Positions 14,401 to 57,737 are shown, counted from the whole stretch's first letter. The stretch: 63,865 nt of DNA, filler included, from Reclinomonas americana ATCC 50394 (GCA_048213135.1; 16 parts of 16 records of this genome joined end to end with filler, not necessarily neighbours in it); one strand, 5' to 3'. Notes: generated by a model not told the origin, from the letters alone. A program made the numbers and translations.

Positions 14401-17400
14401 TGCCGGTGAAGAGGGTGCCGTCGGCAATCTGAATGGCCGCAAAGCGACCACGAATGGCCGTCTCCAGATTGTTGGTGAACTGAGAGCTGGCCAAGTTGGC
14501 CGCACCACCCGTCACCAACACCGCCACTCGCGGCAGGCTGTCAAACGTGCAGTGCGTAAAGCTGGCGGTCGAGCTCGGCCCGTTCACCACCACAGTCGCC
14601 GCCACCGAAGTCTCCGCCACCGACTCCACAAACGTGCTCGAGTCGAGGGCGAGCTTGGCATTGGCCAAGTAAACTGTCACAAGGGGGTGAGTGACTCAAG
14701 AGAGACGACGCAAAGCAACACGAGGGAGCGCAACTGGACAGCGCCTCGGTGCGGGCGGCAGAGCTGCCCGAGAAAGTGAGGCCTTGGCCCGAAAGATTGC
14801 TGCCGGCGAGGAACAAAGCACCGCCGCCAGTGGCCGACGGGTTGGCAATCGAGTTGGTCAAGAAGCGCGTGCGCGCAATCTATTTGTTGTACGGAGATTT
14901 CTTTTAGGCCCATGTGCATAGGGTAAGCAGCGAAACAAGTGTGGCACACTCACCGAGAACGGCTTGGTGGCGTCGCCAATCAAGGCCACGGCACCACCCG
15001 ACTGACCAGCCGAGTTCGACTGGAACTCACTGTCGGTGATCGAAATCGCGATCGTGTCGCGGAACAGAGTGGTCTTGGCCGACACGGCACCGCCCGACAA
15101 GCCGGCCCTGAAAAGTTGAGGTGAGCATCCCCACCACACAACAATGCGATTCTCACTGAAAACGCAACGAATTGCCAGTCAGCTTCACGCTCTGCAGCAG
15201 CAAGCTGGCGTCCTTGAGCGCCAGTGCGCCACCGAGACCCGCCGTGGCCGAGTTGCCCTCCAGCGAAGCATTCTGGATGGTGACCGACGCCGGCTGTGCC
15301 GATGCCTCAGCCTCCACGGCAATGGCTCCACCGTCGCCATCGGCCTGGTTGCCGGTGAAATCACTCAACGCCAGCAGACTGGCGCTGCCCATCCAAATGG
15401 CACCACCAGCACGACCGGCCTTGTTCATCGCAAAGCTCGACACGCTGTCGACGGTGAGCGAGGTGGCGTTGAAGTTGCCGACCAAGCTGCCGCGCAGCAC
15501 CAGCGCACCGCCGACACCGGCGGCCGAGTTGCCAGAGAACAGAGTGCCACGGAACTACGCTCAACACATGCAAAGGGAGTGAGCAGGCTGGCATGGCAAC
15601 GCAAATGTGCGCTTCGAGTATCAGACGCAACGTCGTACGCGGCCTGCACTTCGAGGTACAGAGCACCACCGTCGAGCTGAGCGTGGTTGTTCGTCACACG
15701 AGTGTCGGTGAGGCGAGCGCCCTTGATGGCGACCAGGTTGCCCTCCAGACGCGGCAAGTACACGGCACCACCACGGAAAGCGGTGTTGCCATTCAGGTTG
15801 CTACGATCGAGACGAATCTCGACACCGCCCGTCAGAGCCACGGCACCACCACCGCCACCAGCGACATTGCTGTCCATGGTGGACTCGCTGATGCGCACCG
15901 AGTTGAACGCGGTCGATTGCGTGCGGCTCACACTGCCACCATGCACGTGCACGGCACCACCATTCACACCAGCACTATCCCAAGAAGAACAAGTCAGTGA
16001 AACATGCAGACAAGGGCGCGTCATCAGCAAAGTGCACACACCGGTTGCTGAGGAAGGTGCTCGAGTGAATCCACAGCACCCAGTCGGCGTCGGTGGGTGT
16101 GCGCATGCTAATGGCGCCACCGCTCGAGGCCGTGCTGCTGCAGCTGGAGAACTTGCTGCTCACAATCTTGACAGGGGACTGTCGGCGAGCGCTTTGCGGA
16201 GTCACTGAGGATGGAGAAAGCGCGTGAGCAGTGGTGGTGATGGTGGGTTTCAGGAATGACAATCCCGCTCACCGACAATGCGCAGCGCTCCGGGTCCGTC
16301 AATGGCCTCCAGGTTGGTAAAGGTACTCTCGGTGATGGCCAGCGGTGAATCGAGGCACACCGAGGTGGGGCAATTGTCGACCACACTAATGGCGGGACCG
16401 TCCGAGTTCTGCACCGTCCAGTACGCAATCGAGATCGACTCGTTGACGTCGGTGGAGCACGGGCGCGGGCTCGAGGAGAACGAGCGCACAGACACCAGTG
16501 CCTTTGAGTAACCGAGAGCTGACGGACGTCGGTTCGGCAGCGAGAAGCTCGTCCACTGCAGCAAAGGAAAAGAGACAGTGAGTGACACACGATACAATGG
16601 CAGGGATACCCCACTGGCACGCAGCACTCACCGACACGCGATCAATGGTCACACCTGGCGCGGCTGTGCACAGCGCCACAGCGTCGATCATTTCCACGAC
16701 TGTGTTGTTGAAGTTGTTGTTGAACTGGACGCCCGTCATGTTCAAGTACAGCTGCGTTCCACGAATCGTGCCGTCAAACTCCTCATTGCCGAGCGACGGG
16801 TCTGTGGCAACAATAAAAAGTGAGTTGCGAAAGAAGACAGCCGTTGATGGAGAGCAGCAACGCAACAAGTGGTGGTATCGCGATCCATGCCCGACACGGT
16901 GACCGTGTCGAGAGTGACAGCACTATTCGTGCTGCGCGCCAGCTGCGTGCCGCCGACGACCGTCGACTTGGAGATCGTGAGCGTCGCTCCGTTGGCACCC
17001 TGCCAGAAGAGCGGCTTGCGATCGCGCAGAAGTACGCGCGAGTTGATAATGTTCACCGAGCCACCCTGCAGCGCACGCACGGCAGCCGTGGTGGAGAGGG
17101 AGCCACTCACGGCCGGATTGAACGTGATCTCATCCGAGTCGAAGCGGGCAGAGCCGGCGCCGAGCACCTCAGCGACGCCAGCATCGGGACTGGTGCCGAC
17201 AACCCAGCCCGACTCGAAAATGAGCGACGAGTCCGTGTCCACCGAGAAGGCCGTCGTACCGGCGCACGGGTACACTGCAGCGCTGTTCACTTGCAGGAAC
17301 GCGTTCTGTGATTTGGGGGAGCAGGGGATGAGAAAGGGGACTTGTTTGAAGTGGGATGGAAGCCTCGCTACTGACCTCGAGGAAAAACATGGATCCAATC

Positions 17401-18565: not shown

Positions 18566-24403
<5,838 letters not shown>

Positions 24404-27400: not shown

Positions 27401-30222
27401 AAGAGTGATGAACAGCGACTCACCTTGGTGTGCGTCCGTCGCTCGTTGCTTGAGAAGCAGACTCTGTATGTATGCATTCAACAGTGAGCAGTCATGGCGA
27501 TGATCAGCGATTGATGCGCTGTTTTCCTTGATGTGCGGCACCTTGCAATGCTGGTCGGAGAGCACTTTGAGCGCAAAGATGTTGATGCATGCAGCGTCGC
27601 CCTCGGCCGACGCCACGTAAAAGTCGTACGACGAGTGCAGGTAGGTGCAAATCTTTGGCATGGTAGGAACTGCACGCCACACGCACACACTGGTGAGTGT
27701 GATGGTGCAGGGGGTGTGGAAGAAGACGAACGGTGCTCAACTGTTGATCACTCGGACCATAAGCTGGCCGAGATCGAGGTTCCACACTCCGGCCGTCTTG
27801 TCCTTGTGAATGGTGGCAAATGCACACACATTCTCCATGATGGCACAGTCGACGGCCTGCTCGTGCATCTGCAGCGTGTGCATGATGGTGCCGTTGCGGA
27901 GGCTGCGAACTTCCACCGTGCGTTCGGCACACGCCACCAGAAGACCCGGTCGCGACGCCACACAATCCAATTCGTCGTAGATCAAGTTTGGCAGGCATCT
28001 GCACGATGCGATCAACAACAGTTGAGTGCAAAGTGGGGGGAAGGAGAAGGAACATCAGTGAGGATTGATTACCTCCACGAGCAGAACTCGGTAATGGACG
28101 GATTACGAATGTCGACCATGCGGCAGGCTCCCGACAGAGAGACCACCACGCAGCAGGAGAGGAGGAGGGTGGGATCGACACGTGGTGTTCTCTTCACGTG
28201 ACCCAGCGCCACTGCCTCGTCCACACGAATCGGATCGCGGAAGGAGCGCAGATGTATGACTTCGTTAGTGGTCGAGGGGATCAGTTTTTGTACCGACCCG
28301 TTAATGTACGAAATGATCTGCACGCACATGCTGGTGAGCAAGAGCACAAAACGCCTGTGCCCTTCCCTAGTGCGCACACACCTTCACGTCGCCTTCGATG
28401 GTGCCGACAATGATCAATCGATTGGCGGGATCCAGTGTGCACGCGGTAATGTCGCAGTCCACGGCCTCGCTGATGGTAGACACTGGCTCCGCATTCGACG
28501 TCTTGTAGATGTGGATCTCGGAACCAGTGGCCACCAACAGCGTGTCGAACGTGGGGTTGTGGACGACTGCGGAGACGGGCTTGGAGAGACGGGACGAGTC
28601 GGAGTCCTGTCGCTGCGGCCACGCGCAAAAGTTGCGACCAATGGTGTAGATCTCCTGCCGCTGCGGGTCGTACGAGAAGGCACGAATCGGACCCGTGTAG
28701 CTCTTGCTGCCCACTGCACCCAGCGTCTGAATGCAGCTAAACATGCGACTGCGCGAGGATGGTGGGGAAGAAGAAAAGTAAGCAATCTGGACATGTCGCT
28801 GTGGGGCTTCTCCCGACGCACATGTCCCACAGTTTCATCACGCCGCCGCGGTCGACACTGAGAATCTCTGGCGAGTTTTCCAGCGCGTGCACTCCAACCA
28901 GCGGCTTCTCGTGGCCGGTGAGCGTCTGGATCATGCGGTGAGAGAAGGGATTCCACACGCCGACCTCGCGTGAGTAGCCGGCCGTCATGAGGAACTGGAA
29001 GCGTGGCGAGTAAGTGATGCTGGTGATGCCCTTGCGTGAGCCCTCCTTTTCGCCCTTGCATTTGCCGGTGTTGCAGTCCCACACTTTGATCAGGCGATCG
29101 AGAGAGCACGACACAATCATGTCAAGGTCGGGGATCTGCGTGTGAATGTGTGTGAGTGAGGAAGAGAAGTGGTGGCCTTCTCCCCACTTCACCCCGCACC
29201 TGAATGAGACCCGTGACCCAGTCACTGTGGCCACGCGACGTCCACTCCTCTGTCCATCGCCCACTCCTGGGAATGCCGCCCGGTCGTTGTGGATCCCACC
29301 ACCGGATGGAGCCGTCCGTGCCGCCGCCCAGCAGCATGTTGGCGTCCTTGCACCACAGCAGCGTGGACTGCGGTGTGCGCGTCATGAATTCGCCCTGCGG
29401 CTTGAACATTTCCGAGTCCAGCATTTGCACAATGCCGTCGGCACCCGAGAGTGCAATCTGTGTCGCTGGATGAGTTCTTTCTCCCTCCCCCTCTCCCCCT
29501 CTCCTTCTCTCCACACCTCTTCAGAGGCCGGGAGGAACACGGCGTCGAGAATCGGAGCGTTGCGGTCGGCGAGCTTGCGGAGGATTTCGCCAGTGTCGGG
29601 CGAGCGAATGGTGGCGTAGTGATCGTTGGTGCACTGAATGATCTTGGAGCACTCGCGGATGAACTTCATCTTGCCGCAGTCGGCCTCGATGACGTTGCTG
29701 TACTCACGCGGAGTGCTCTCGAACAGCTCCAGAAAGGAGCCTTCACCGCGCGTCAGACTCTCCAGCACCGTCGACGAGAAGTCTTCCCAGTGAATCTGTG
29801 TGAGGAGAAGAGTGTGAGAGGGGACGATCTGCCACTCTCTCTGTGCGTGTATACTCACCTTGCCCCGCTGTGCCGTATCCAGCTGCACAAACAGCTCCGA
29901 CAGCTCAATCACTCGCGCCTCATCCATACGCACGCCATTCCGCTCGAGAATGTTGGAGGTCACCGACGCAAACTGACACGGACGGAATCAGCACGCGCAC
30001 CCCTCCCACTGTCATGTACACACACGCACACACTCACCTCGCGAAAGGTCAGGCCTCCGAAGCCCAGCGAAAACTGCTTTTGCAACTCACGCAGCTGCGA
30101 GTGCTCCAGATCGGAGATGAGCCGCGTGATTGCGAGCTCCTGCGTGTGTGAGTGCGTTTCGCGGGTGAGATGGAGCACAGACGAAGAGAGACAAGGAAGA
30201 ACGAGATAACTTTTCTCGACAT
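24460..30222 (-). CDS. EF-hand + WD40 protein (WDR49/WDR64/EFCAB8-like) with an embedded degenerate protein kinase domain and a low-complexity tail
   Basis: ELFVQLDTAQRGKIHWEDFS (EF-hand); GHSDWV..SCSLDRLIKVWD and GHEKPLV..KLWD; kinase motifs VMLK, CLVMEY, LHALGWVCGDVSPANV, CPPE, FDMWGYGLLLYEM. Confidence 0.8.
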
Positions 30223-40609: not shown

Positions 40610-41668
40610 ATGTCGCGCAAGTGTCTGCTTGGCCACACTGGCGTCGTGTACTCTGTCGCCATCACTCCCGACGGTCAACACGTTGTGAGTGGTGGTGGCG
40701 ACAGCACTGTGCGTGTGTGGTCGCTGGCGAGTGGCAAGGAGGTGCGACGTTTGGAGGGGCACACTGGCGTCGTGTACTCTGTCGCTGTCACTTCCGACGG
40801 CCGGCACATTGTGAGTGGTGGTGCCGGCGGCGAAGTGCGTGTGTGGTCACTGGCGAGTGGAGAGGAGGTGCGACGAATGAGCGCGCGTGTGAGTTGGGTG
40901 TTGTCTGTTGCAGTCTCCCGGGATTGCCAGCATGTTGTGAGTGGCGGCTCTGATGCGACTGTGAGAGTTTGGTCACTGGCTAGTGGTGAGGAAGTGTGGC
41001 GGTTTGAGGGGCACGATGGGATGGTGCGCGCTGTTGCCGTAACCCCCGATGATCAGCACGTCGTGAGTGGTGGCTTTGATGAAACAGTGCGGCTGTGGTC
41101 GCTGGTGAGTGGCCAAGAAGTACGGCGATTTGACGGTCACGTGCATACTGCAGACGTGTATTCTGTCGCTGCCACTCCCGATGGTCAACACATTGTGAGC
41201 GGTGGTGACGACAGCATCGTGCGAATGTGGTCGCTGGCGAGTGGAGAAGAAGTGCGGCGATTGAAGGGCCATAGTGATTCAGTTGTGAGCGTTGCTGTCA
41301 CTCCCGACGGTCGGCACGTTGTGAGTGGCAGTGATGATACGTCTGTGCGGGTGTGGTTGCTGGCGAGTGGCACGGAAGTTCGACGGCTGACGGGGCACAC
41401 TGCCGGAGTGTTCTCTGTCGCTGTCTCCCCCAATGGACAGTGCGTTGTGAGTGGGAGTGTAGACAAGAGCGTGCGAGTGTGGTCCACGCCGTATGGCCTC
41501 GCTCGGCAGGAGCTGGAGTGTGCGAGTGAGGCCATGCGCGTGTTGCAGCAGGAGGAGGAGGAGCCGGATCGGCGTTGCTTGGTGGAAATTGTGCTGCGAT
41601 GCTTCTTGGTGGAGGATGCCGAGGTGGTTGTGCATCGGTGCTTGGTGGACGACGACCTCTGGTTGTGA
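40610..41668 (+). CDS. Array WD40 protein copy A (7 blades + conserved tail), intronless
   Basis: Seven ~42-aa repeats GHxxxVxSVAVTPDGxHIVSGxxDxTVRVWS; tail YGLARQELEC...HRCLVDDDLWL. Confidence 0.92.
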   Translation: MSRKCLLGHTGVVYSVAITPDGQHVVSGGGDSTVRVWSLASGKEVRRLEGHTGVVYSVAVTSDGRHIVSGGAGGEVRVWSLASGEEVRRMSARVSWVLSVAVSRDCQHVVSGGSDATVRVWSLASGEEVWRFEGHDGMVRAVAVTPDDQHVVSGGFDETVRLWSLVSGQEVRRFDGHVHTADVYSVAATPDGQHIVSGGDDSIVRMWSLASGEEVRRLKGHSDSVVSVAVTPDGRHVVSGSDDTSVRVWLLASGTEVRRLTGHTAGVFSVAVSPNGQCVVSGSVDKSVRVWSTPYGLARQELECASEAMRVLQQEEEEPDRRCLVEIVLRCFLVEDAEVVVHRCLVDDDLWL

Positions 41669-41911
41669 AAAGGCGACGTTGATACTGCAGCGTTTCTCCA
41701 TGGTTTCTTCTCTTCGTGTGTCGGTAAAGGGGATTCTGTGTCAACATTGTCTTTGTGCACAAGTAAATGGTGTGTGCAGTGCTTGCTCATTGTTTTCTTG
41801 GCGTTGAAGTTCTGACTGATGTCCTCGAGGACGCATCGAGAATCCACGACATCTTCCCTCTACTGTACTCTCGTGACCACAGCACCTCACTCTCTCCACT
41901 CCCATTATATC

Positions 41912-42997
41912 ATGTCTTCTGCTGCCGCTGCGTCTTCTTCTCTCCCACACAAGTGTCTCCTTGGACACACTAGTGCGGTGTTTTGCGTTGCCGTCACTCC
42001 GGATGGTCAACACATTGTGAGTGGCGGTCTCGACAAGACTGTGCGTGTGTGGTCGCTGGCGAGTGGCAAGGAGGTGCGACGGTTGAAGGGCCACACTGAC
42101 TTCGTGTACTCTGTCACTGTCACTCCCAATGGTCAACACATCGTGAGTGGTAGTGGCGACAGCACTGTACGTGTGTGGTCACTGTTGATTGGCGAGGAGT
42201 TGCAGCGCATTGAGGGACACTCATGGTTGGTGCTGACTGTTGCTGTTACTCGCGATGGGCAGCACATCGTGAGTGGCGGCGCAGACAAAACTGTACGAGT
42301 ATGGTCACTGGTGAGTGGCAAGGAAGTGTGGCGACTGGAGGGACACACTGACGTGGTGCGTTCTGTCGCCGTAACCCCCGATGATCAGCACGTTGTGAGT
42401 GGTGGTTGCGACAGAACAGTGCGTGTATGGTCCATGGCGAGTGACCAAGAAGTGCGGCGTTTGGACGGGCACACCTCGTGGGTGTTCTCTGTCGCCGTCA
42501 CTCCCGATGGTCAACACATCGTGAGTGGTGGTGCCGACAGCACCGTGCGAGTGTGGTCGCTGGCGAGTGGAGAAGAAGTGCGGCGACTGGAGGGCCATAC
42601 TAATTGGGTGCAATCCGTTGCTGTCACTCCCGATGGCCGGCATGCTGTGAGTGGGAGCAAGGACAATACAGTGCGTGTGTGGTCGCTGGCAAGTGGCAAG
42701 GAAGTGCGACGGTTGGAGGAGCACACTGCTGGAGTGATCGCTGTCGCCATCTCCCCCGATAGCCAGCACATCGTGTGTGGGACACTCAGTGGCACTGTGT
42801 TTTTGTGGTCCTCGCCGTGCGGCCTCGCTCGGCAGGAGCTGGAGTGTGCACGAGCGGCCTTGCGCTCGCTGCAGGAGATGCAACGGGAGGAGGATGAGGA
42901 GCCAGATCGGCGTTGCTTGGTGGAAATCGTGCTGCGGTGCTTCTTGGTGGAGGATGCCGAGGTGGTCATCCATCGGTGTGGCGACCTCAGGTTGTGA
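41912..42997 (+). CDS. Array WD40 protein copy B (7 blades, tail end shortened)
   Basis: Starts MSSAAAASSSLPHKCLLGH; 7 repeats; ends HRCGDLRL. Confidence 0.92.
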   Translation: MSSAAAASSSLPHKCLLGHTSAVFCVAVTPDGQHIVSGGLDKTVRVWSLASGKEVRRLKGHTDFVYSVTVTPNGQHIVSGSGDSTVRVWSLLIGEELQRIEGHSWLVLTVAVTRDGQHIVSGGADKTVRVWSLVSGKEVWRLEGHTDVVRSVAVTPDDQHVVSGGCDRTVRVWSMASDQEVRRLDGHTSWVFSVAVTPDGQHIVSGGADSTVRVWSLASGEEVRRLEGHTNWVQSVAVTPDGRHAVSGSKDNTVRVWSLASGKEVRRLEEHTAGVIAVAISPDSQHIVCGTLSGTVFLWSSPCGLARQELECARAALRSLQEMQREEDEEPDRRCLVEIVLRCFLVEDAEVVIHRCGDLRL

Positions 42998-43232
42998 AAT
43001 AGGCGCCAGGCGATTCTGTTTCACTTTTTTGTTTCTTCTTTTTCGTGCGTTGGGCAAGGGCGTGCTTGATTTGTCCTCGGACATTCTGTTCCCGCCGTCG
43101 TCGTCAGAGCTCGGTCCGTCCTCACTCTCCACCTCATGTCTTCCGCCGCCGTACGAGCTCGTATGCAACAGAGGCAGTCCCCTCGTCCAGCGATCAAAAC
43201 CTCGCACTTCGCTCTCACTACATAAGCGAAGG

Positions 43233-43430
43233 ATGCTCCTCTCTCTCACCCGACCCATCTTCTATGGTATGTCAACACGCCAGTCTCTCACTTTCCTCTG
43301 TCATCCCTGTCCTCACATCTTCATGTGCGCAGGCGCAGGGGCGAAGCACTGCTCTCCTCCTCCTCCTCCACGCACTCTTGTTCTGAGGTGAGTCTCAAAC
43401 ATGACTTGCTTATACGCATGTTGTGAGGAG

Positions 43431-43490
<60 letters not shown>

Positions 43491-45297
43491 AATACATGTG
43501 AATGTGATTGACAACTGATCATCTCGCAGTCGCCTGTTTGCTTCCTCCACTTCTTCCACTCGTAAGCCTCGCAAGCCACGAAACAGCGGCACTGGTATCC
43601 TGCGTGCTGGTGAGTAAGTATTCACTCTGTCCACCTGCTCTTGTCCTCACTCCCTTCGTGCACATACACACACATAGAGAAACTGGAGAAGCTCGTTGCT
43701 GCCATGCGCCAGGCCACCCTTTGGCACGTCGACGCTGCCACGTCAGCTCGCACCAAGACGACCGACATCACCACCACCACCTACATTGAGTTGGAGCAAG
43801 GCGTGAAGTGGCCGGGAATCGGCTCGCCCATTCTGTTTGTGCGCGACTTTTACGACCGCCTCTTCTCCTCTTCTGCCGGCCTTGGTGGCCTCGATCCAGC
43901 TCGCTCATACGGCAAGCGTCACAAGTTCTACATCACGGGCACGCCTGGCATTTCCAAGTCGGCGTTCGGCATGTATGTGCTGTACCGGGCGCTGATGGCC
44001 AAGAAGACCATCCTGCTGCGCCACGGCGACATTGAGAACTTCACGCCGCATTTGATCGATGGCAAGCGCGTGTGGGCATCGGCGACGGAGATGCCGCTGA
44101 ATCGCGATCGTGGTATCGACCTGTACTTGGTGGATGGCACCAGGCCGGGTCTGTACGACACCGAGGAGGTGACAATGTCGCTCCTCATCACCTCACCGAA
44201 CCGCCTCCTCTGGCGTGACTTTGCCAAGCGCCGCGGAGTGCCGCTCTACTTCCCCACGTACCAGTACGAGGAGCTGGAGTTGTTGCGGCAGGTGGCCTTC
44301 GACGATCAGAGTCGTGAGGAGGTGCGACAGCGATATGAGATGTGGGGCGGATCGGCGCGCTCGGTTCTCTCCGACAACGACGACATTGGCCAACTCAGCT
44401 TGGAAACTGCATTCATGAAGTTCAAGCCGCAGGATCTACTGCGGGCTGTGGAGCTTGGCGCGGAACGTGAGGATGGCAGTGGCGCTGGCATCTCCCATCG
44501 CCTCGTGCACCTGATCGTTGACCGTGCCAAGTTTACGCTGGTGGGTGTGGACTTTGCCTCCGCCTATGTGGCGATGAAGCTGCTCGAGGAGTGGCGCAAG
44601 TGGCACGTACTGGACGCCAAATTCCTGCTGTCGCGTCTGCATGCGTTGGGCTCGATTGCATCGGTCATGTACGGCCATGCCTTCGAGGAGTACGCCCACA
44701 TCGTGTTGGCTGGCGGTGGACGCTTCAAGTGCCGCGAGCTGGTCAAAGGTGGTGGTGACGCACCGTCAACTGTGCTGGAGCTGGTGCCGAGTTTCGCATT
44801 TTGTGGTCTTGTCGAAGATGATGCGTGCTGTAGTTGCGCGTGCTGATGCTTCATTCACAGGCCGTTCACACGTTTTTTCCGATCTGTCGGAGGTGGTAGC
44901 GCATCACTACTGGCGTCCGAAGGCCGCCAACTTCCCCGCCATTGACTGTATCATGAACCGCACGGATGGCGGTCTGGCGCTGGGCAACATGACAATCATT
45001 GACAAGCACGAGATTGTTGCGCTGACGGAGAAGGGCCAGACTGGTCTGCTGCCTCTGGTGCAGACACTGCGCCACAACGGGGAGATCAATTTCTACTGGG
45101 TGGTGCCGGCTCGCGTCTTTGAGAGGATGCGTGAACCTGGCGCCATTCTGAACAAAACCAATCCACTGGTGGACGAGGAGGCCGTGGAGCGCCTGCGACA
45201 GCAAGTACGTCAGTTTGTGTTGTGTATCGATGTGGAACCTGCCATTGAAAAGAAGACAGAGTCGTCGCTTTATTATCACGCAATGAGAGTTTTTTAA
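43233..45297 (+). CDS. Crinkler/RHS-type P-loop NTPase + restriction-endonuclease-fold protein with a presequence-like leader; exons 43233-43266, 43333-43387, 43530-43609, 43678-44790, 44861-45297
   Basis: Walker A ITGTPGISKS, Walker B YLVDG, ITSP, WGGSAR, FASAYV, GHAFEEYAH; REase-like YWRPKAANFPAIDC..NMT...H, FYWVVP, RQFVL. Confidence 0.85.
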
Positions 45298-45671
45298 AGG
45301 CAGGTCTGTCAGTTGTCTGTCACCTTGTACTGCATCACGTCAACGAAACACTCTTTAACGAGCTCAGGGAGCGCTATCGCTACTGGAAGCACATTGGTCA
45401 CTTGTATGACGACAGTCGAGACAAGGATCCGGCCTATAGCTAGCGTTCGGCGCCAGATGACTCTGCAGCGCTTCTTCTCTTCGTGCGTTGGACAAGGGGG
45501 ATTCTGCGTCGACACTCTCTGTGTACAGTAAATGGTGTGTGCCCTGCTTGCACTCTTTGGTGGGGCACTTGGCTTTGAAGTTGAGATCGATGTCCTCGCG
45601 GACATGCACACTTCTCCGTTGTCGTCCCTCTCGTGACCACAGCAACTCACTCTCTCCACTCCCATTCTATC

Positions 45672-45693
45672 ATGTCCTCTGCCGCCTCCGTTT
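45672..45693 (+). CDS. Start of a further array WD40 copy, cut by a gap
   Basis: Full array spacer followed by ATGTCCTCTGCCGCCTCCGTT, the same start as the copy at 48830. Confidence 0.75.
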
Positions 45694-45793
45694 NNNNNNN
45701 NNNNNNNNNNNNNNNNNNNNNNNNNNNNNNNNNNNNNTTAATTAATTAANNNNNNNNNNNNNNNNNNNNNNNNNNNNNNNNNNNNNNNNNNNN

Positions 45794-45994
45794 CGGTCCA
45801 CGCCGTACGGCCTCGCTCGGCAGGAGCTGGAGTGTGCACGAGCGGCCATGCGCTCGGTGCAGGAGATGCAGCGGGAGGAGGAGGAGGAGGAGGACCGGCG
45901 TTGCTTGGTGGAGATCGTGCTGCGGTGCTTCCTGGTGGAGGATGCCGAGGTGGTTGTACATCGGTGCTTGGTGGATGACGACCTCTGGTTGTAA
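45794..45994 (+). CDS. 3' tail of an array WD40 copy (5' end in gap)
   Basis: STPYGLARQELECARAAMRSVQEMQRE6DRRCLVEIVLRCFLVEDAEVVVHRCLVDDDLWL, then TAA. Confidence 0.85.
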   Translation, partial: RSTPYGLARQELECARAAMRSVQEMQREEEEEEDRRCLVEIVLRCFLVEDAEVVVHRCLVDDDLWL

Positions 45995-46204
45995 AGGCGA
46001 CACCGAAGGCTTTCTGCTTTGTTTCTTCTCTTCGTGTGTTGTGTGCACAAGTAAATGGTGTGTGCAGTGCTTCCTTGCTCATTGGTTTCACTTGGCGTTG
46101 AAGTTCAGATCGAGCGATGATGTCCTCGCGGACATGCACTTTTCTGTTGTCTAGTCGTCCCTCTCGTGACCACAGCACCTCACTCTCTTCACTCCCGTTC
46201 TACG

Positions 46205-47296
46205 ATGTCCACTGCTGCCGCCGCCGCTTCTTCTCTCCCACACAAGCGTTTGCTTGGACACACCGGTTATGTGTGCTCCGTTTCCGTCACTCCGGATGGT
46301 CAACACATTGTAAGTTGTGGCGGTGGCGACTACGCTGTGCGTGTGTGGTCGCTGGCGAGTGGCGAGGAGGTGCGACGGTTGGAGGGACACTCTGGCGCCG
46401 TTGCCGTCACTCCCGATGGTCAACGCATAGTTAGCGGTGGTGACAAGACGGTGCGAGTGTGGTCGCTGTCGAGTGGCGAGGAGTTGCAGCGCTTTGAGGG
46501 ACACGTGAGTTGGGTGCTGTCTGTTGCTGTTACTCACGATGGGCAGCACATCGTGAGTGGCGGCATGGATAAAACTGTACGAGTGTGGTCACTGACGAGT
46601 GGCAAGGAAGTGTGGCGACTGGTGAGACGCATGCGCACCGATAACGTGCTGTCTGTTGCCGTAACCCCTGATGGTCTGCACGTCGTGAGTGGCGGTTTCG
46701 ACAGAACAGTGCGTGTGAGGTCACTGGCGAGTGGCCAAGAAGTGCAAAGGCTGGAGGGACATACTGGATTTGTGTTCTCTGTCGCCGTCACTCCCGATGG
46801 TTTGCACATAGTGAGTGGCGGGCAGGACAACACCATTCGGGTGTGGTCACTGGCGAGTGGAGAAGTGCGGCGATTGGAGGGCCACAGCGATTGGGTGCGA
46901 TCCGTTGCTGTAACCCCCAATGGTCTGCATGCTGTGAGTGGGAGCAAGGACAAGACAGTGCGTGTGTGGTCGCTGGCAAGTGGCAAGGAAGTGCGACGGT
47001 TGGAGGGGCACTCTGCAGGAGTGTTCTCTGTCGCCGTATCTCCCGACGGCCAGCATATCGTGAGTGCGGGTCTTGACAAGAGCGTGCGAGTGTGGTCCTC
47101 GCCGTGCGGCCTCGCTCGGCTGGAGCTGGAGTGTGCGAGAGAGGCCATGCGCGTGGTGCAGGAGATGCAACGGGAGAGCGGAGAGGGGGAAACGGATCGG
47201 CGTTGCTTGGTGGAAATGGTGCTGCGATGCTTTCTTTTCGAGGACGCGGCGGTCATCGTTCATCGGTCCTTGGTGGACTACGATCTCTGGTTGTGA
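46205..47296 (+). CDS. Array WD40 protein copy C (7 blades + tail)
   Basis: Starts MSTAAAAASSLPHKRLLGH; 7 repeats with small in-frame indels; tail ends DYDLWL. Confidence 0.92.
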   Translation: MSTAAAAASSLPHKRLLGHTGYVCSVSVTPDGQHIVSCGGGDYAVRVWSLASGEEVRRLEGHSGAVAVTPDGQRIVSGGDKTVRVWSLSSGEELQRFEGHVSWVLSVAVTHDGQHIVSGGMDKTVRVWSLTSGKEVWRLVRRMRTDNVLSVAVTPDGLHVVSGGFDRTVRVRSLASGQEVQRLEGHTGFVFSVAVTPDGLHIVSGGQDNTIRVWSLASGEVRRLEGHSDWVRSVAVTPNGLHAVSGSKDKTVRVWSLASGKEVRRLEGHSAGVFSVAVSPDGQHIVSAGLDKSVRVWSSPCGLARLELECAREAMRVVQEMQRESGEGETDRRCLVEMVLRCFLFEDAAVIVHRSLVDYDLWL

Positions 47297-47529
47297 AGGC
47301 GACACCGAAGGCTTTCTGCCTTGTTTCTTCTCTTCGTGCGTTGAGCAAGGGGGATTCTGTGTCGGCATTCTCTGTGTACAGTAAATGGTGTGTGCCCTGC
47401 TTGCACTCGTTGGTGGGGCACCTGGCATTGAAGTTGAGATCGATGTCCTCGCGGACATGCACTGTTCTCCGTTGTCTAGTCGTCCCTCTCGTGACCTCAG
47501 CACCTCACTCTCTCCACCCCCATTCTATC

Positions 47530-48627
47530 ATGTCCTCTGCTGCCGCCGCCGCTTCTTCTCTCCCACACAAGTGTCTCCTTGGACACGCTGGATATGTGCA
47601 CTCAGTCGCCATCACTCCCAACGGTCAACACATTGTGAGTGGTGGTGCCGACATGACTGTGCGTGTGTGGTCGCTGGAGAGTGGCGAGGAGGTGCGGCGG
47701 TTGAAGGGCCACACTGACTTCGTGCGCTCTGTCGCTGTCACTCCCGATGGTCAACACATCGTGAGTGGTGGTGCCGACAGCACTGTACGTGTGTGGTCAC
47801 TATTGAGTGGCGAGGAGGTGCAGCGATTTGAGGGACACTCATGGTTTGTACTGTCTGTTGCTGCTACTCGCGATGGGCAGCACATCGTGAGTGGCGGCAT
47901 GGATAAAACTGTACGAGTGTGGTCACTGGCGAGCGGCGAGGAAGTGTGGCGGCTGGAGGGACACGATGAGATGGTGCGCTCTGTCGCCGTAACCCCCGAT
48001 GATCAGCAAGTTGTGAGTGGTGGTTACGATAGAACAGTGCGCGTGTGGTCTCTGGCGAGTGGAGAGCAGGTGCGACGGTTGGAGGGTCACACTGATACGG
48101 TGCTGTCTGTCGCTGCCACTCCCGATGGTTTGCACATAGTAAGTGGCGGGCAGGACAACACCATTCGTCTGTGGTCGCTGGCGAGTGGAGAAGAAGTGCA
48201 GCGGTTGGAGGGCCACACTGCTTCAGTTGTGAGCGTTGCTGTCACCGCCGACGGTCTGCACGTTGTGAGTGGCAGTGATGATACGTCAGTGCGGGTGTGG
48301 TCGCTGGCGAGTGGCAAGGAAGTGCGACGGCTGGAGGGGCACACTGCTGGAGTGTTCTCTGTTGCCGTCTCCCCCGATGGCCAGTTCATCGTGAGTGGGA
48401 GTGAGGACAACACAGTGCGAGTGTGGTCCACGCCGTACGGCCTCGCTCGGCAGGAGCTGGAGTGTGCGCGAGAGGCCATGCGCGCGGTGCAGAAGATGCA
48501 GCGGGAGGAGGAGGAGGAGGAGGAGGACCGGCGTTGCTTGGTGGAGATCGTGCTGCGGTGCTTCCTGGTGGAGGATGCCGAGGTGGTTGTACATCGGTGC
48601 TTGGTGGATGACGACCTCTGGTTGTAA
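47530..48627 (+). CDS. Array WD40 protein copy D (7 blades + tail)
   Basis: Starts MSSAAAAASSLPHKCLLGH; 7 repeats; tail with an E7 tract. Confidence 0.92.
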   Translation: MSSAAAAASSLPHKCLLGHAGYVHSVAITPNGQHIVSGGADMTVRVWSLESGEEVRRLKGHTDFVRSVAVTPDGQHIVSGGADSTVRVWSLLSGEEVQRFEGHSWFVLSVAATRDGQHIVSGGMDKTVRVWSLASGEEVWRLEGHDEMVRSVAVTPDDQQVVSGGYDRTVRVWSLASGEQVRRLEGHTDTVLSVAATPDGLHIVSGGQDNTIRLWSLASGEEVQRLEGHTASVVSVAVTADGLHVVSGSDDTSVRVWSLASGKEVRRLEGHTAGVFSVAVSPDGQFIVSGSEDNTVRVWSTPYGLARQELECAREAMRAVQKMQREEEEEEEDRRCLVEIVLRCFLVEDAEVVVHRCLVDDDLWL

Positions 48628-48829
48628 AGGCGACACCGAGGCTTTCTGCTTTGTTTCTTCTCTTCGTGTGTTGTGTGCACAAGTAAATGGTGTGTGCAGT
48701 GCTCCTTGCTCATTGGTTTCACTTGGCGTTGAAGTCGAGATAGCTGTCCTCGTGGACATGCACACTTCGTTCTCCGTTGTCGTCCCTCTCGTGACCAGAG
48801 CACCTCACTCTCTCCACTCCCATTCTATC

Positions 48830-49609
48830 ATGTCCTCTGCCGCCTCCGTTTCTTCTTCTCTCCTGCACAAGTGTCTCCTTGGACACACTAGTGCGGTGTT
48901 CTCCGTCGCCATCACTCCCGACGGTCAACACATTGTGAGTGGTGGTGCCGACATCACTGTGCGTGTGTGGTCGCTGGAGAGTGGCGAGGAGGTGCGGCGG
49001 TTGAAGGGCCACACTGACTTCGTGTGCTCTGTCGCTGTCACTCCCGATGGTCAGCACATCGTGAGTGGTGGTGACAAGACGGTGCGAGTGTGGTCACTGT
49101 TGAGTGGCGAGGAGGTGCAGCGCATTGAGGGACACTCAAGGTTGGTGCTGTCTGTTGCTGTAACTCGCGATGGTCAGCACATCGTGAGTGGCGGCATGGA
49201 CAAAACTGTACGAGTGTGGTCACTGACGAGTGGCAAGGAAGTGTGGCGATTGGAGGGACACACTGACGTGGTGCGCTCTGTTGCCGTAACCCCCGATGAT
49301 CAGCACGTTGTGAGTGGTGGTTATGATAGAACATTGCGCGTGTGGTCTTTGGCGAGTGGAGAGGAGGTGCGACGGTTGGAGGGTCACGCTACAGCCGTGT
49401 TCGCTGTCGCCGTCACTCCCGATGGTCAGCACGTTGTGAGTGGGAGCAGAGACAACACCGTGCGAGTGTGGTCGCTGGTGAGTGGAGCGGAAGTGCGGCG
49501 ATTGGAGGGCCATACTGATTTGGTGCAATCCGTTGCTGTCACTCCCGACGGCCGGCACGTTGTGAGTGGGAGCAAGGACAATACAGTGCGTGTGTGGTCG
49601 CACATTTAA
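48830..49609 (+). CDS. Array WD40 copy E, truncated (6 blades, no tail); possible pseudogene
   Basis: Six repeats, then VRVWSHI and TAA, joined directly to the proximal upstream sequence of the next unit (ATG at 49666). Confidence 0.8.
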   Translation: MSSAASVSSSLLHKCLLGHTSAVFSVAITPDGQHIVSGGADITVRVWSLESGEEVRRLKGHTDFVCSVAVTPDGQHIVSGGDKTVRVWSLLSGEEVQRIEGHSRLVLSVAVTRDGQHIVSGGMDKTVRVWSLTSGKEVWRLEGHTDVVRSVAVTPDDQHVVSGGYDRTLRVWSLASGEEVRRLEGHATAVFAVAVTPDGQHVVSGSRDNTVRVWSLVSGAEVRRLEGHTDLVQSVAVTPDGRHVVSGSKDNTVRVWSHI

Positions 49610-49787
49610 CTTCTCCTATCCCTCTCGTGACCACAGCACCTCACTCTCTTCACTCCCGTTCTACGATGTCCACTGCTGCCGCCGCCGNNNNNNNNNNNNN
49701 NNNNNNNNNNNNNNNNNNNNNNNNNNNNNNNTTAATTAATTAANNNNNNNNNNNNNNNNNNNNNNNNNNNNNNNNNNNNNNNNNNNN

Positions 49788-50003
49788 TGGTCCACGCCGT
49801 ACGGCCTCGCTCGGCAGGAGCTGGAGTGTGCACGAGCGGCCATGCGCTCGGTGCAGGAGATGCAGCGGGAGGAGGAGGAGGAGGAGGAGGAGGAGGAGGA
49901 GGACCGGCGTTGCTTGGTGGAGATCGTGCTGCGGTGCTTCCTGGTGGAGGATGCCGAGGTGGTTGTACATCGGTGCTTGGTGGATGACGACCTCTGGTTG
50001 TAA
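49788..50003 (+). CDS. 3' tail of the last array WD40 copy (start probably at 49666, middle in gap)
   Basis: WSTPYGLARQELEC...E11 tract...DDDLWL, then TAA. Confidence 0.85.
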   Translation, partial: WSTPYGLARQELECARAAMRSVQEMQREEEEEEEEEEEDRRCLVEIVLRCFLVEDAEVVVHRCLVDDDLWL

Positions 50004-50360
50004 AGGCGACACCGAGGCTTTCTGCCTTGTTTCTTCTCTTCGTGCGTTGGCCGACTGGTACTGCATGGCATTTTTTTCTAAATGGCGTGTGTACTGCTTT
50101 GTTGTTGATCAAGGGCTTTGGTTTTTCTTTGCACAAAGAGAGCAAGGATGCATACACCTCGTGATCTGTTCGTAAGAGAGAGAAGACAGAAAGAAAGTCT
50201 TGTGTCCTCGTCCGCAGTCACTGCATGCAATCAATCAACAACACCAGCACGCAATGGGCAAATCAAGTGCGTGTGTCTCACTGTGTGTGTGTGTGTGTGT
50301 GTGTGCGGGTGTGTCTCACTGAGGTCTTCTTTGTGCGTGTGCGCACCTGCAGAAAAGAAG

Positions 50361-51405
50361 ATGCCGCGGGCATCGACGACGGCGGAGGATATTCTGACAG
50401 GGAACACCACTCGGCATTTGCAGAAGAAGAGCAAGCAGAGTTGAGTGGAAGGGAGAGAGAGAGAGAGAGAGTGAGTGAGTGAGGGAGGGAGGGAGGGAAG
50501 GTGAGTGAGTGAGTGAGAGAGTGAGTGAGTGAGTGAGTGAGTGAGTGTGATTGCTGTGTGAGTGAGTGAGTGAGTGAGTGAGTGAGTGAGTGAGTGAGTG
50601 AGGGAGTGAGTGAGTGAGGGAGTGAGTGAGTGAGTGTATAAGAGAGAGTGAGTGAGAGTAGTGTGTGTATATGTGCAGAGGCCTCTGCCTCTCATTGCAC
50701 CCACTCCTCACTCCTCTTCCCCATCCTTCCCCCTTTACCCCTTTCCTCACAGTGCACCGCATGCTCGGCCGCCTCGGCGTCAGCGGCGCATTCGGCTCCG
50801 GCGGCATTCACTCGTCAATGGACATGGACACGGCCAGTGGGAGCGGCCTGACGAGCACTGAGCGGAAAAAGTTGAAGAAGCAGCGACAAAAGGTGCGCGC
50901 CTCGGCACCCGTCACACCTCGTGGTGGTGGTGGTGGCAGTGGTGACGCCGACGAAGCACCACGACTTGATCTGTCGGCCTTTTTGGTGCGACGGTCCGAC
51001 GAGGCGGCCGAGGCCTCCACCGCCTTTTCGACGCCGGCGAACCGCCTGAAGAGTCGCGGACTGCGACGCAAGCTGCGACAGCGCAAGGAGAAGGCGTTGG
51101 AGCGCGGACTCGGCTTTGCGTCGCGTCTCGAGCAGCGCGCTGTCAAGCTCATCAAGACGCCGAGCAGCGCTGTGACGACCAGTGCGCGGCGCAAGAAGGC
51201 CGCCGCCTCGTCGTTGCTCAAGTCGTCGCTGAATTCGGCGAGTGGTGAGCGTGCTGCCGCCGCGTCGCGTCGCCAGCGACAAATGGGTGATGCGCTGGCG
51301 GAGTTTTTCGGCAGCGATGACGATGACGACGATGACGACGAGGTGGAGAAGGGTGAGGCGGAGGTGGTTGCTGGTGGCGGCGGCGAGATGGACGACAGTG
51401 AGTAA
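50361..51405 (+). CDS. Basic protein resembling ribosome-biogenesis factor Alb1; 2 exons (50361-50439, 50753-51405)
   Basis: In-frame splice at GTTGAGT..CAG; segment RRKLRQRKEKALERGLGFASRLEQRAVK resembles the Alb1 motif; acidic tail. Family call is by eye. Confidence 0.55.
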
Positions 51406-54519: not shown

Positions 54520-55868
54520 TCATGGGAAAATCTGCGTGGTGGTGCGAGCGCGGCGATCATAGCGGTCCACTCGTGAGAAGAATTCGGGTGGAATGACGCC
54601 GTCGATGCCCTGCGGAAGGAGGGGAAGGGGAAGGGGAAGGGGGGAGGTGAGGGGAGAAGGGGAACAGGGGGGAAAGGGAGGGAGAGGGAGAGGGGGAGAG
54701 AGAGTGTGTGAGAGAGAGAAGGAGACGGGCAGGAGAACGAAGCATAGCGAGAAACGGAGAACGAAACACAGTTAGAGACGGGGAGGAAAGAAGAACATCG
54801 ATAAGAGAGAGAGAGAGCGCGCGCGAAGAGCAAAGTGCGGAAGGAGGAGGAATCAAGCGCAGTGACAGAGGGGGAGAGGAGTGAAGTGCAGCGAGTTAGA
54901 ATGAGAGAGGAACGAAGCACGACGAGAGAGAGGGAGGAAGAGAGTGCGGAACTGATGGAGAGAAAGAAAGCGCAAGAGAGAAACAGAGAACGAAACACAG
55001 TTAGAGACGGGGAGGATCGAAGAACATCGATTAGAGAGAGAGCGTGAGGAGAAAAGTGCGGAAAGAGGGGAAGGGGAAGGGAGGAGATGATGGGGGAGGG
55101 GAAGGGAGAAGAGGGGAGGTTGAGAGAGCGAGAGACCGGGAGAGGAATCAAGCGCAGCGAGAGAGGGGGAGAGGAGCGAAGTGCAGCGAGTTAGACTGAG
55201 AGAGGAACGAAGCACGACGAGAGAGAGAGAGAGAGGAAGAGAGTGCGGAACTGATGGAGAGAGAAAGAAAGCGCAAGAGAGAAACGAAAGGGTACGCAGT
55301 GTGAGAAAGAGTGACGCACAAGGAGACAGATGAGGGAGAGAAGGCAGCGCAGAGCGCAAGCCAGGCAGCGGAACCCACTGAGAGAGAGAGAGAGAGACCG
55401 CCAATCTCACCTCACTCAAAATCACATTGTTGGCGCTGCGCAGGAACACAATGCCGGCCTCCATGGCGCGCGCCACATCCACGTGAATGATAATGCTGCA
55501 GCTCGCGCGCATGCCGGAGATCACGCCGTCCTCGCCGGGCAGGCCAGCGGCCATGTGAATGTGCTGGCGGCGCATGCGGTTGAGTCCTTCGCGACGGATA
55601 ACGTCCCACGCCTCCTCGTTGGTGCCGTGGATGCTGACGGGGACGGTGGCGGGGTCGGTGATGAGCTCCATTTCCACCTGCGGGTAAATAGGGAGAAGGG
55701 AGGGGGTGAGAGCGAGAAGGAGGAGGACAAAGGGAAAGGAGGCCGAGGGAGAAGGAGGTCAATGGAGAAGGAGGCCAAAGGAGAAGGAGGCCAAGGAGAA
55801 GGAGAAGGAAGACAAAGGAGAAAGAGGTCAATGGAGAAAGAGGCCAAAGGAGAATAAGATGATTGAGT

Positions 55869-55919
<51 letters not shown>

Positions 55920-57178
55920 AGTAATACTCTACGAAGAAGGAGAGAGAGATACACACACGACGAACGAAAAGAACGGTACGGTAAGGAAGGAAGGAAGGAA
56001 GGAAGGAAGGAGGNNNNNNNNNNNNNNNNNNNNNNNNNNNNNNNNNNNNNNNNNNNNTTAATTAATTAANNNNNNNNNNNNNNNNNNNNNNNNNNNNNNN
56101 NNNNNNNNNNNNNGTTGTAGTACGTTCATCTAACTAATTTTCCCGTCCTTTTGTTCTCACTCCTCGCTCGTACCGTACCATCCGCCTTCGGTCCGGTACC
56201 AGCAGGGAAGTAATACTCTACAAGGAGAGAATGGAGATACAACATCGCAAAGAAAGCGTAGAGAGAGAGAGAGAGAGAGTGACGATATGCAGGCCGACGA
56301 AGCAACTTGTAGTGATTGTGACTTGCGTTGCAAAAACGAATGATGAGAGAGACAGTGAGAGCACAACGAGGAGAGGGAGGCAGAACTGACAGTGAAGTGA
56401 GGAAGTAAGGACAGCAAAGAGCGAGTTGCGGAAGGAGAGGGGTGAAGGGGAGGACAAGATGATGAGAATAAGAACAGGAGAGGCATTAATTTGCAGAACA
56501 GAAAGGAGAATAGGGCCGTTCGCAATGCCTTGTTTTCTCTCTCCCTCTCTCCCTCCTTCCCCCCCTCCTCTCTCTCTCCACAAACCTCCACATCCCTCAT
56601 CGAGTGGCCCTGGTTGGCACGAATGTACATATCGCCGTCAAACTCGCGCACCGCAAAGCGCTGCTTCTTGCACATCTGTGCCATTCTCAGCACGTCCTCG
56701 ACGGACCTGAGAGGAGAGAGAAAGTGAATCAATAAGAACGGAGGAGTGAGAGAAGCAGACGAGAAAGACGGAGAGAGATGAACAAAAGAGGCGACGAAGG
56801 AGGAGAAGAAGGTGGAGGGAGAATGAAAGAGGGAAAAATGAAGGGGAGTGACGATGACAAGACGAAGACGGGGGAGGCGGAGAAGAAGGAGAGAGAGAAA
56901 AGCGAATGGCGCAGAGTGAGCAGACAACGCACTTTGTTGGGCACCGCCGAATGCGCATAATCTCATCGATACGCACAAACCCATCCGGTCGCATATCAAG
57001 GCCCTCCTCATGCGCTCCATGCCTACAACAACAGATATCAGCAAGATACCTGGGAGCCACAAATAGACGATTTCGCGTGCACTCACCGAAGCACATATGA
57101 GAAGAACTTGCTCAGACGCGTGTTGTAGTCGTCGTCGCCACCCCGTCCTCCTCTCGGTCTTCCAGCAGCAGCAGCCAT
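54520..57178 (-). CDS. TPT1: tRNA 2'-phosphotransferase (Tpt1/KptA), 5 exons, spanning a gap
   Basis: LSKFFSYVLRHGA, DGFV, KQRF, IRANQGHS, HGT, GLNRMRRQHIH, ISGMR, SANNVILSEGIDGVIPPEFF. Confidence 0.95.
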
Positions 57179-57737
57179 AAATAGACGACTGTATGCAAGG
57201 AAAAACACGACGGACAAGAACATGAGTGAAAAAGGGAGAAGAGAAGGGGAGGGAGACAGGGGAAGGAAGAGGGGGCCAAGGGCAGAGGAAGAATGGGGAA
57301 AGAGAAGGAACGAATGGGGATGAGAAGAGTGAGTGAGTGGGAGAGTGAGTAAGGGAGTGAGAGAGAGATAGGGAGACAGGGAGGGGAAAGACAAGAAAGT
57401 AGGAGAGGAAGGAGAAGAAGAAATGAGATCAGAAAAGGGCGATGACAGAGAGGAGAGAGACAGAGAGAGAATGAGAGAAACAGTGAGAGTTTTCAGAGAC
57501 GCGCAACGATGTGATCGATCGCGCGCAGCAAATGACTGACAAAGACGACACAAGCAGCAACATGTGAGATTGAGAGGGAGGGACTCACTCACGTAGAAGA
57601 GAAGCAACAATCAAAGACGGGCTTCTGTTGTTTTTCGCGCGCAAAAAAGATTGAAGGGACAGTTTGATGCCAGCGAGCCTCGATTGTCACGCCTCGACCG
57701 CCTCGAGAGAACCTGAGAGAGTTTTCTTCGTTGTGTG

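Follow-up and report, generated by a model that had tools for sequence, protein, structure and literature searches.

We found that a stretch of DNA from Reclinomonas americana ATCC 50394 (GCA_048213135.1), a 63,865-base scaffold which was analysed as a whole and is called the window here, carries a head-to-tail array of WD40 genes on the (+) strand at 40610–50003. Replacement between the copies is concentrated on four top-face positions in each blade of an otherwise conserved propeller. The genes are real and are held in frame by purifying selection on the scaffold and on a C-terminal tail, and recombination or gene conversion has moved blade-sized segments between the copies. We lean towards the view that the array is a lineage-specific tandem family of about seven genes, each encoding a rigid propeller with a helical tail, which together would form a repertoire of differing binders. 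Diversification of the putative binding face by positive selection is supported but not proven by comparison of the copies, and an immune or non-self role is something that we can only infer.

Variable positions map to one face of the propeller

Each open reading frame (ORF) of the array consists of a propeller and, at the C-terminus, a conserved tail of about 65 amino acids (aa), and nothing more. Pfam WD40 (PF00400) matched seven stretches in each of the full-length gene bodies c1, c2, c4 and c5 and six in the truncated c6, at 228–268 bits (cutoff 27). For c5, an AlphaFold model based on an alignment of 23 sequences reached a mean predicted local distance difference test score (pLDDT) of 88.6. 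It contains seven four-stranded blades (28 strands) over residues 11–300 at pLDDT >93, with an N-terminal strand at residues 14–17 closing blade 7, and two helices after the propeller (302–326 and 332–344) that lead into a C-terminal end of low confidence. Foldseek matched the model to seven-blade WD40 structures at E 1e-33; the closest solved structures were the repetitive bacterial or designed propellers 5yzv (42% identity, root mean square deviation (rmsd) 0.8), 7big and 2ymu, and then WDR5.

We aligned 34 blades from the five sequenced copies and compared same-numbered blades between paralogs. The amino acid difference was 0.50–0.76 at six columns, namely three that directly follow GH, one that follows the invariant V, and both neighbours of the D in GGxDxT. 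Other columns mostly differed at 0–0.35, with three more at 0.46–0.55. A previous reading of this DNA, made from the sequence alone, had singled out strong variation in these motifs; all of the motifs that it listed are present, but its list mixes differences between blades, which any WD40 protein has, with differences between paralogs. In the c5 model the variable columns sit in the D–A loop and the start of strand A, and in the B–C turn. Because the antiparallel meander puts the D–A loop and the B–C turn at the same end of the blade, these columns share the top face, and the modelled topology bears out the earlier placement of the variable sites on one ligand-binding face.

In HET-E of Podospora anserina, according to Paoletti 2007 (PMC1805685), repeat codons 7, 9, 25 and 27 lie on the top face, are under strong positive selection and flank the conserved codons 8 and 26. 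We took the equivalent array columns 6, 8, 25 and 27 as an a priori set of 28 codon sites. Aromatic residues make up 22% of the residues at these four top-face sites versus 4% elsewhere, an enrichment that would fit a binding surface better than drift.

Selection at the top-face sites

We estimated omega, the ratio of nonsynonymous (dN) to synonymous (dS) change, with a GY94-type likelihood in which branch lengths were synonymous distances common to both site classes. With one tree and shared dS, omega was 2.73 at the four a priori columns versus 0.32 for the rest, and twice the log-likelihood difference (2dlnL) against omega = 1 was 37.2; with a separate tree for each blade, omega was 2.80 and 2dlnL 35.4. 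Column by column, omega was significantly above 1 solely at the four sites (4.65, 2.11, 3.79 and 2.07), and it was 0.00 at the invariant V and 0.18 at the invariant D. The scaffold gave omega 0.27–0.34, which indicates purifying selection, and the controls gave 0.31 for the bottom-face A–B loops, 0.35 for the C–D loops and 0.66 for the other variable columns. IQ-TREE codon models returned omega 0.45 overall and 0.30 for the rest of the sites.

Several observations weigh against reading these values as positive selection on a binding face. The tests compare only five sequences, which are paralogs and not alleles. IQ-TREE gave omega 1.10 for the six top-face columns alone. Pooled Nei–Gojobori estimates over same-numbered blades were dN 0.60 and dS 0.74 for the six columns and dN 0.095 and dS 0.385 for the rest, and omega at the variable columns was 0.81 with local dS. 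A class-specific synonymous rate (r 1.98) brought omega to 1.39 with 2dlnL 1.07, which is not significant; the excess over neutrality therefore depends on the assumption of equal synonymous rates. Codon pairs that differ at two or three bases make up 46% of the codon pairs at the four sites versus 6.5% elsewhere, which strains single-step codon models and leaves the estimate fragile. Finally, two of the copies look decayed, c4 with its in-frame indels and lost motifs and c6 with its truncation. The earlier proposal of diversifying selection accordingly holds up as long as dS is shared (omega 2.7–2.8) and loses its significance once the class has its own dS. The four sites evolve at least at neutral speed and faster than the neighbouring synonymous sites.

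These same observations suit an explanation in which the array is an ordinary ageing cluster of paralogs, whose top face is unconstrained or saturated, whose function, if any, lies elsewhere (in the scaffold, the tail or another surface), and which is slowly decaying. Omega of 1.1–1.4, not significant when the class synonymous rate is free, the local Nei–Gojobori value and the common multi-base differences at the four sites would all be expected, as would the indels and the loss of GH and W in c4 and the shortened c6. Pairwise dS between copies (0.24–0.65, Nei–Gojobori) likewise points to old duplicates. However, strong constraint acts on the codons adjoining the variable ones, the four sites undergo replacement at 2–4.6 times the synonymous rate under a shared mutation rate, neutral drift does not predict the enrichment in aromatic residues, and every copy shows purifying selection on scaffold and tail (for the tail, omega 0.31 and dS 0.27). 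We regard an ageing cluster as a real possibility but a doubtful one.

The copies are mosaics

DNA identity between c5 and c6 was 0.91–0.92 in blades 1–4 and then 0.75 and 0.72 in blades 5 and 6, while identity between c1 and c5 was up to 0.90 in blade 6. The log-likelihood rose from -2826.6 to -2709.7 when each blade was given its own tree, which shows different histories along the gene. Since the copies are mosaic blade by blade, they have recombined. For 33 of the 34 blades, the nearest blade was the one with the same number in another copy; the exception was blade 2 of c1, which was nearest to blade 1 of c1. This pairing gives no sign of general repeat shuffling within genes. Identity that jumps from blade to blade, yet with blade order kept, suggests that diversity in the family comes from gene duplication, from exchange among the paralogs and from replacement of contact residues.

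A stand-alone propeller with a private tail

Only 13 residues separate the initial Met from the first strand, and we found no N-terminal HET or effector domain in the array genes. There is likewise no NACHT domain: the ORFs are filled by propeller and tail, and the spacers between them measure 200–240 bp. This agrees with the sequence-only reading, which had described a free-standing propeller plus tail with neither NACHT nor effector domain. Elsewhere in the window, the 90 other ORFs that reach 160 aa gave no match to a nucleoside triphosphatase (NTPase) family, and no window ORF of >45 aa contained a canonical Walker A motif.

The tail searched alone against Pfam (E up to 10) returned DUF4761 at E 0.18 only and no docking family (SOCS, F-box). 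We also considered a BC-box/SOCS reading of the tail and rejected it, as the motif did not fit when checked by eye. No relative of the tail was found in the protein collection (200–639 aa range) or among PDB sequences, the Atlas gave no usable match, and 435 pattern matches on metagenome contigs included no relatives. With no relative detected for the tail, any role given to it is conjecture, and this too counts against the interpretation offered here.

On that interpretation, each small cytosolic protein would be one rigid seven-bladed WD40 propeller followed by the conserved C-terminal helical tail of about 65 aa. The common scaffold would carry, in each paralog, a ligand-binding top face unlike the others, and the invariant tail would couple all paralogs to one shared partner or location. 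From differing top faces and a shared invariant tail it would follow that the array acts as a repertoire of binders with differing specificities, be it a recognition or sensor family or a family of substrate adaptors. For the last of these, the tail would dock on a common enzyme complex, for example a ubiquitin ligase, and the variable top faces would choose substrates. In its favour, the proteins combine a variable propeller with a short helical module at the C-terminus that is invariant and held by purifying selection, and parallels exist in WD40 proteins with a C-terminal box and in expanded F-box or BTB adaptor families. Against it, the Pfam search of the tail gave no docking family, whether SOCS, F-box or another, and the tail has no sequence match in the PDB and no look-alike in the Atlas. 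Substrate adaptors therefore strike us as rather unlikely.

Layout of the array

The array has seven gene starts and six tails. A 1.33-kb unit (47297–48627) matches 40618–41666, 41693–42995, 45995–47294 and 48628–49601 at 80–83% DNA identity over most of its length, and it also matches the unit ends at 45472–45690, 45795–45994, 49619–49687 and 49788–50003. Within the window, the 12-mer CCTCTCGTGACC is confined to sites about 45 nt 5′ of a unit ATG, and six of the units have it (6 occurrences versus 0.61 expected, a count that 0 of 100 shuffles reached). These six marked starts and the start of c1, which is its own, make up the seven. Five gene bodies are sequenced (c1, c2, c4, c5 and c6), four of them full-length and c6 truncated; the bodies of c3 and c7 fall in scaffold gaps, and for these genes we see the start on one side of a linker and the tail on the other. 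The sequence-only reading had counted at least seven units of about 1.3 kb, which the starts, the tails and the unit length uphold, but the count has to be qualified by the five sequenced bodies, the truncation of c6 and an insertion between c2 and c3.

The first gene, c1 (40610–41668, +), encodes 352 aa with seven blades and a tail. It has a short N-terminus of its own and lacks the standard upstream spacer; GH is gone from its blade 3 and blade 5 carries a 2-aa insertion. The standard inter-gene spacer, first seen at 41669–41911 (+), is pyrimidine-rich, about 200–240 bp long, and recurs ahead of c3–c7; the 60 nt preceding the ATG are conserved and include CCTCTCGTGACC. Then follows c2 (41912–42997, +; 361 aa, seven blades and tail), which diverges most in blade 7 and the final tail residues. 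The start of c3 (45672–45693, +) comprises the start codon and the first 7 codons at a contig end, and the next contig begins with the tail of a copy, probably c3 (45794–45994, +). The intact ORF of c4 (46205–47296, +) encodes 363 aa with seven blades and a tail; blades 2 and 5 have in-frame deletions, and blade 4 lacks GH and has its W changed to R. The most regular copy is c5 (47530–48627, +; 365 aa), with all seven H-S/T-D-W tetrads. In c6 (48830–49609, +; 259 aa) there are six blades and no blade 7 or tail, a deletion having removed everything between strand C of blade 6 and the final ~67 nt of the spacer that follows. The start of c7 (49666–49687, +) again comprises a start codon and first codons at a contig end, and the 67 nt from 49621 are identical to the c4 start region. 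After the linker comes the tail of the last copy, probably c7 (49788–50003, +). This tail and that at 45794–45994 differ only in a Glu run (a GAG/GGA repeat), which is longer in 49788–50003; they are either very recent copies or one sequence placed twice. We mark the end of the array at 50049 because homology to the spacer stops there. A (GAGT)~51 microsatellite at 50453–50656 flanks this end.

The window is a scaffold of 16 contigs with 15 identical linkers, N44-TTAATTAATTAA-N44, between them. The linker puts stop codons into all six frames, and one of its 15 sites is at 45694–45793, within the array. An alanyl-tRNA synthetase (AlaRS) gene at 18626–23508 (+) was recovered as at least eight tblastn pieces over 4.9 kb, in query order across two linkers, and a gene for the Tpt1/KptA RNA 2′-phosphotransferase (54856–57428, −) is split by the linker at 56014–56113. 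Because the AlaRS pieces keep their order across two linkers and Tpt1 spans another, we take the linkers as true scaffold gaps.

This bears on whether the copies could be an assembly artefact, that is, collapsed or chimeric repeats. Three linkers lie inside or beside the array, the c7 start equals the c4 start over 67 nt, and the c6 junction is odd, all of which would fit an artefact. However, the copies are 70–85% identical in protein, and the five bodies, differing by 15–30%, adjoin one another within two contigs (c1 and c2 on one, c4–c6 on the other); moreover, genes that linkers split in other parts of the window bear out the order of the contigs. Given divergent copies with several bodies per contig, we take the array not to be an assembly artefact, an origin that we consider highly improbable.

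All five ORFs are intronless and uninterrupted, whereas the AlaRS gene nearby falls into at least eight pieces, from which we take the region to be intron-rich; the earlier description of intronless genes in intron-rich surroundings was correct. A putative GT..AG intron of about 52 nt, read by eye, lies at 20465–20516 in the AlaRS gene. We rejected a polycistronic array in the style of kinetoplastids or dinoflagellates, as the neighbours have ordinary introns (that one putative GT..AG intron) and we saw no spliced-leader evidence. The AlaRS itself is of bacterial type, its top matches being bacterial at no more than 49% identity, and is presumably an organelle enzyme. Other features of the window include ORFs at 13161–16159 (−) with Chlamydia polymorphic-membrane-protein repeats and a beta-helix (PF02415, E 7e-18), unusual for a eukaryote, and a piece of a separate, ordinary WD40 gene at 28740–29381 (−), on the opposite strand and outside the array. 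Rfam and tRNA scans of the window gave no match, and PADLOC reported nothing beyond a generic repeat match to the propeller.

A Crinkler/RHS-type gene inserted in the array

A 2.4-kb insertion (43061–45448, +) interrupts the spacer between c2 and c3. It is bounded by direct repeats that arose by duplication of the spacer's first ~60 nt (43002–43060 and 45449–45498), and it contains a (GT)26 microsatellite at 43433–43485. Inside is a non-WD40 gene (43641–45297, +) with a P-loop NTPase and a C-terminal nuclease-like region, read in two frames as ORFs 43641–44846 and 44641–45297. The two ORFs together had 1115 relatives at E up to 1e-3, the top one sharing 37% identity. The family consensus has a P-loop, then a WGGxPR motif, then a C-terminal QxTxxxxH, and these motifs align with both frames in the window. 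The inserted gene itself had no Pfam match. Among 86 relatives scanned, three carried PF20147 Crinkler and one reached the PF07999 RHSP threshold; a separate 25 relatives included none with Crinkler or RHSP and several with sub-threshold nSTAND3 matches. In the Atlas the nearest named clusters were RHS (score 0.96). A review (PMC5289972) describes a pair of NTPase and restriction-endonuclease-like domains as a common Crinkler/RHS C-terminus, and with this order of motifs the inserted gene can be classed as a predicted Crinkler/RHS-type NTPase-nuclease. Its P-loop deviates from the family consensus and its frame is interrupted; the gene may be a pseudogene or contain an unrecognised intron. At the locus we saw no evidence of a functional tie between it and the WD40 genes.

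Relation to known WD40 systems

The array resembles HET-E, HET-D and HNWD of P. anserina in three respects: the WD40 repeats are 42 residues long and unusually similar to each other, replacements gather on the top face at both neighbours of a conserved Val and of a conserved Asp, and family members exchange sequence. The differences are equally clear. The array genes have no NACHT and no N-terminal death or effector domain, only a propeller and an orphan tail. Mean pairwise blade identity within a copy was 0.63, 0.64, 0.69, 0.69 and 0.72, with 86% for the top single pair; these means lie below the roughly 85% of HET-E and HNWD, and for fungal NLR repeats, Dyrka 2014 (PMC4986451) set the threshold at 85% identity or more over at least 100 aa. 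Blade order is fixed (for 33 of 34 blades), with neither apparent shuffling within genes nor variation in repeat number, and the diversity is between tandem paralogs, not alleles. The comparison with Podospora drawn by the sequence-only reading is apt for the four positions, which are those of HET-E, but does not extend to repeat identity (63–72% and not ~85%) or to within-gene shuffling. Lacking NACHT and effector domain, with lower repeat identity and no apparent repeat shuffling, the array is not a member of the HET-E/NLR family.

By analogy, it might still be a form of recognition that does without a NOD module, in which tandem WD40 sensors diversify at the top face as in fungal NLRs while the orphan tail would signal in trans to a shared executor. 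Such a system could be a split counterpart of NLR-type non-self recognition that arose on its own in a protist. We think this unlikely.

The array also resembles repetitive WD40 proteins. In Hu et al. 2017 (PMC5587647), Highly Repetitive WD40 proteins have an internal identity of at least 0.7 and Moderately Repetitive ones of 0.4–0.7. At 0.63–0.72 against 0.7, a comparison that does not use the method of that paper, the copies would count as Moderately Repetitive for certain and as Highly Repetitive at the border. These proteins share with the array an internal identity far above that of ordinary eukaryotic WD40 proteins, complete H-S/T-D-W tetrads and variable hotspots on a conserved scaffold; they differ in being mostly bacterial or fungal, often many-bladed or multi-domain, and fused to signalling domains, whereas here one seven-blade domain with a unique tail is encoded by separate tandem genes in an intron-rich eukaryote. 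The examples 5yzv (Thermomonospora) and 2ymu belong to the class that is structurally closest to c5. WDR5-type adaptors resemble the array proteins in size and fold (template modelling (TM) score 0.77, ~30% identity). Top-face binding is typical of these seven-blade adaptors. WDR5, however, is a single-copy, slow-evolving hub with dissimilar blades, and has neither a tandem family nor such a tail. Among the papers listed by a literature search on stand-alone tandem WD40 families under selection were plant family surveys and one Drosophila duplicate, and nothing resembling the array.

Protein searches with the array genes returned generic WD40 proteins only, the best 61% identical, with the propeller mostly covered. 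In prokaryotic genomes we confirmed 13 loci, the best 50% identical; none of the 13 covers the tail, and recent transfer from bacteria is therefore unsupported. Acquisition from bacteria followed by amplification in place would account for the missing introns and the repetitive, bacterial-type blades; it concerns the origin of the family and is compatible with the other explanations. Intronless genes in an intron-rich region, bacterial repetitive WD40 proteins as the nearest solved structures, and many best sequence matches on prokaryote-sized contigs all speak for it. However, the low identity of the best prokaryotic locus and the uncovered tail count against a bacterial source as such, consensus-like repeats match each other whatever their descent, which leaves room for an old transfer but also makes trees of such repeats unreliable, and the G+C content of the array genes (0.58–0.60) resembles that of the surroundings. 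We judge it quite improbable.

Returning to a repertoire of differing binders, the reading that we prefer, the array is best filed as a variant that extends a known theme, that of WD40 sensors with repetitive blades and variable hotspots. In fungal and bacterial NLR/STAND proteins, the C-terminal part can be a repeat sensor whose variation is confined to the residues in contact with the ligand; here the same four positions per blade evolve fast, but in free-standing tandem propeller genes with a private tail. If the genes are expressed and truly diversifying, the WD40 top face would have been repeatedly recruited as a variable recognition surface even where there is no nucleotide-binding switch, and the array would offer a simple system of one domain and one tail for learning the targets of such surfaces and their way of signalling. 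Otherwise, it would be a clean case of birth-and-death evolution with blade-wise recombination.

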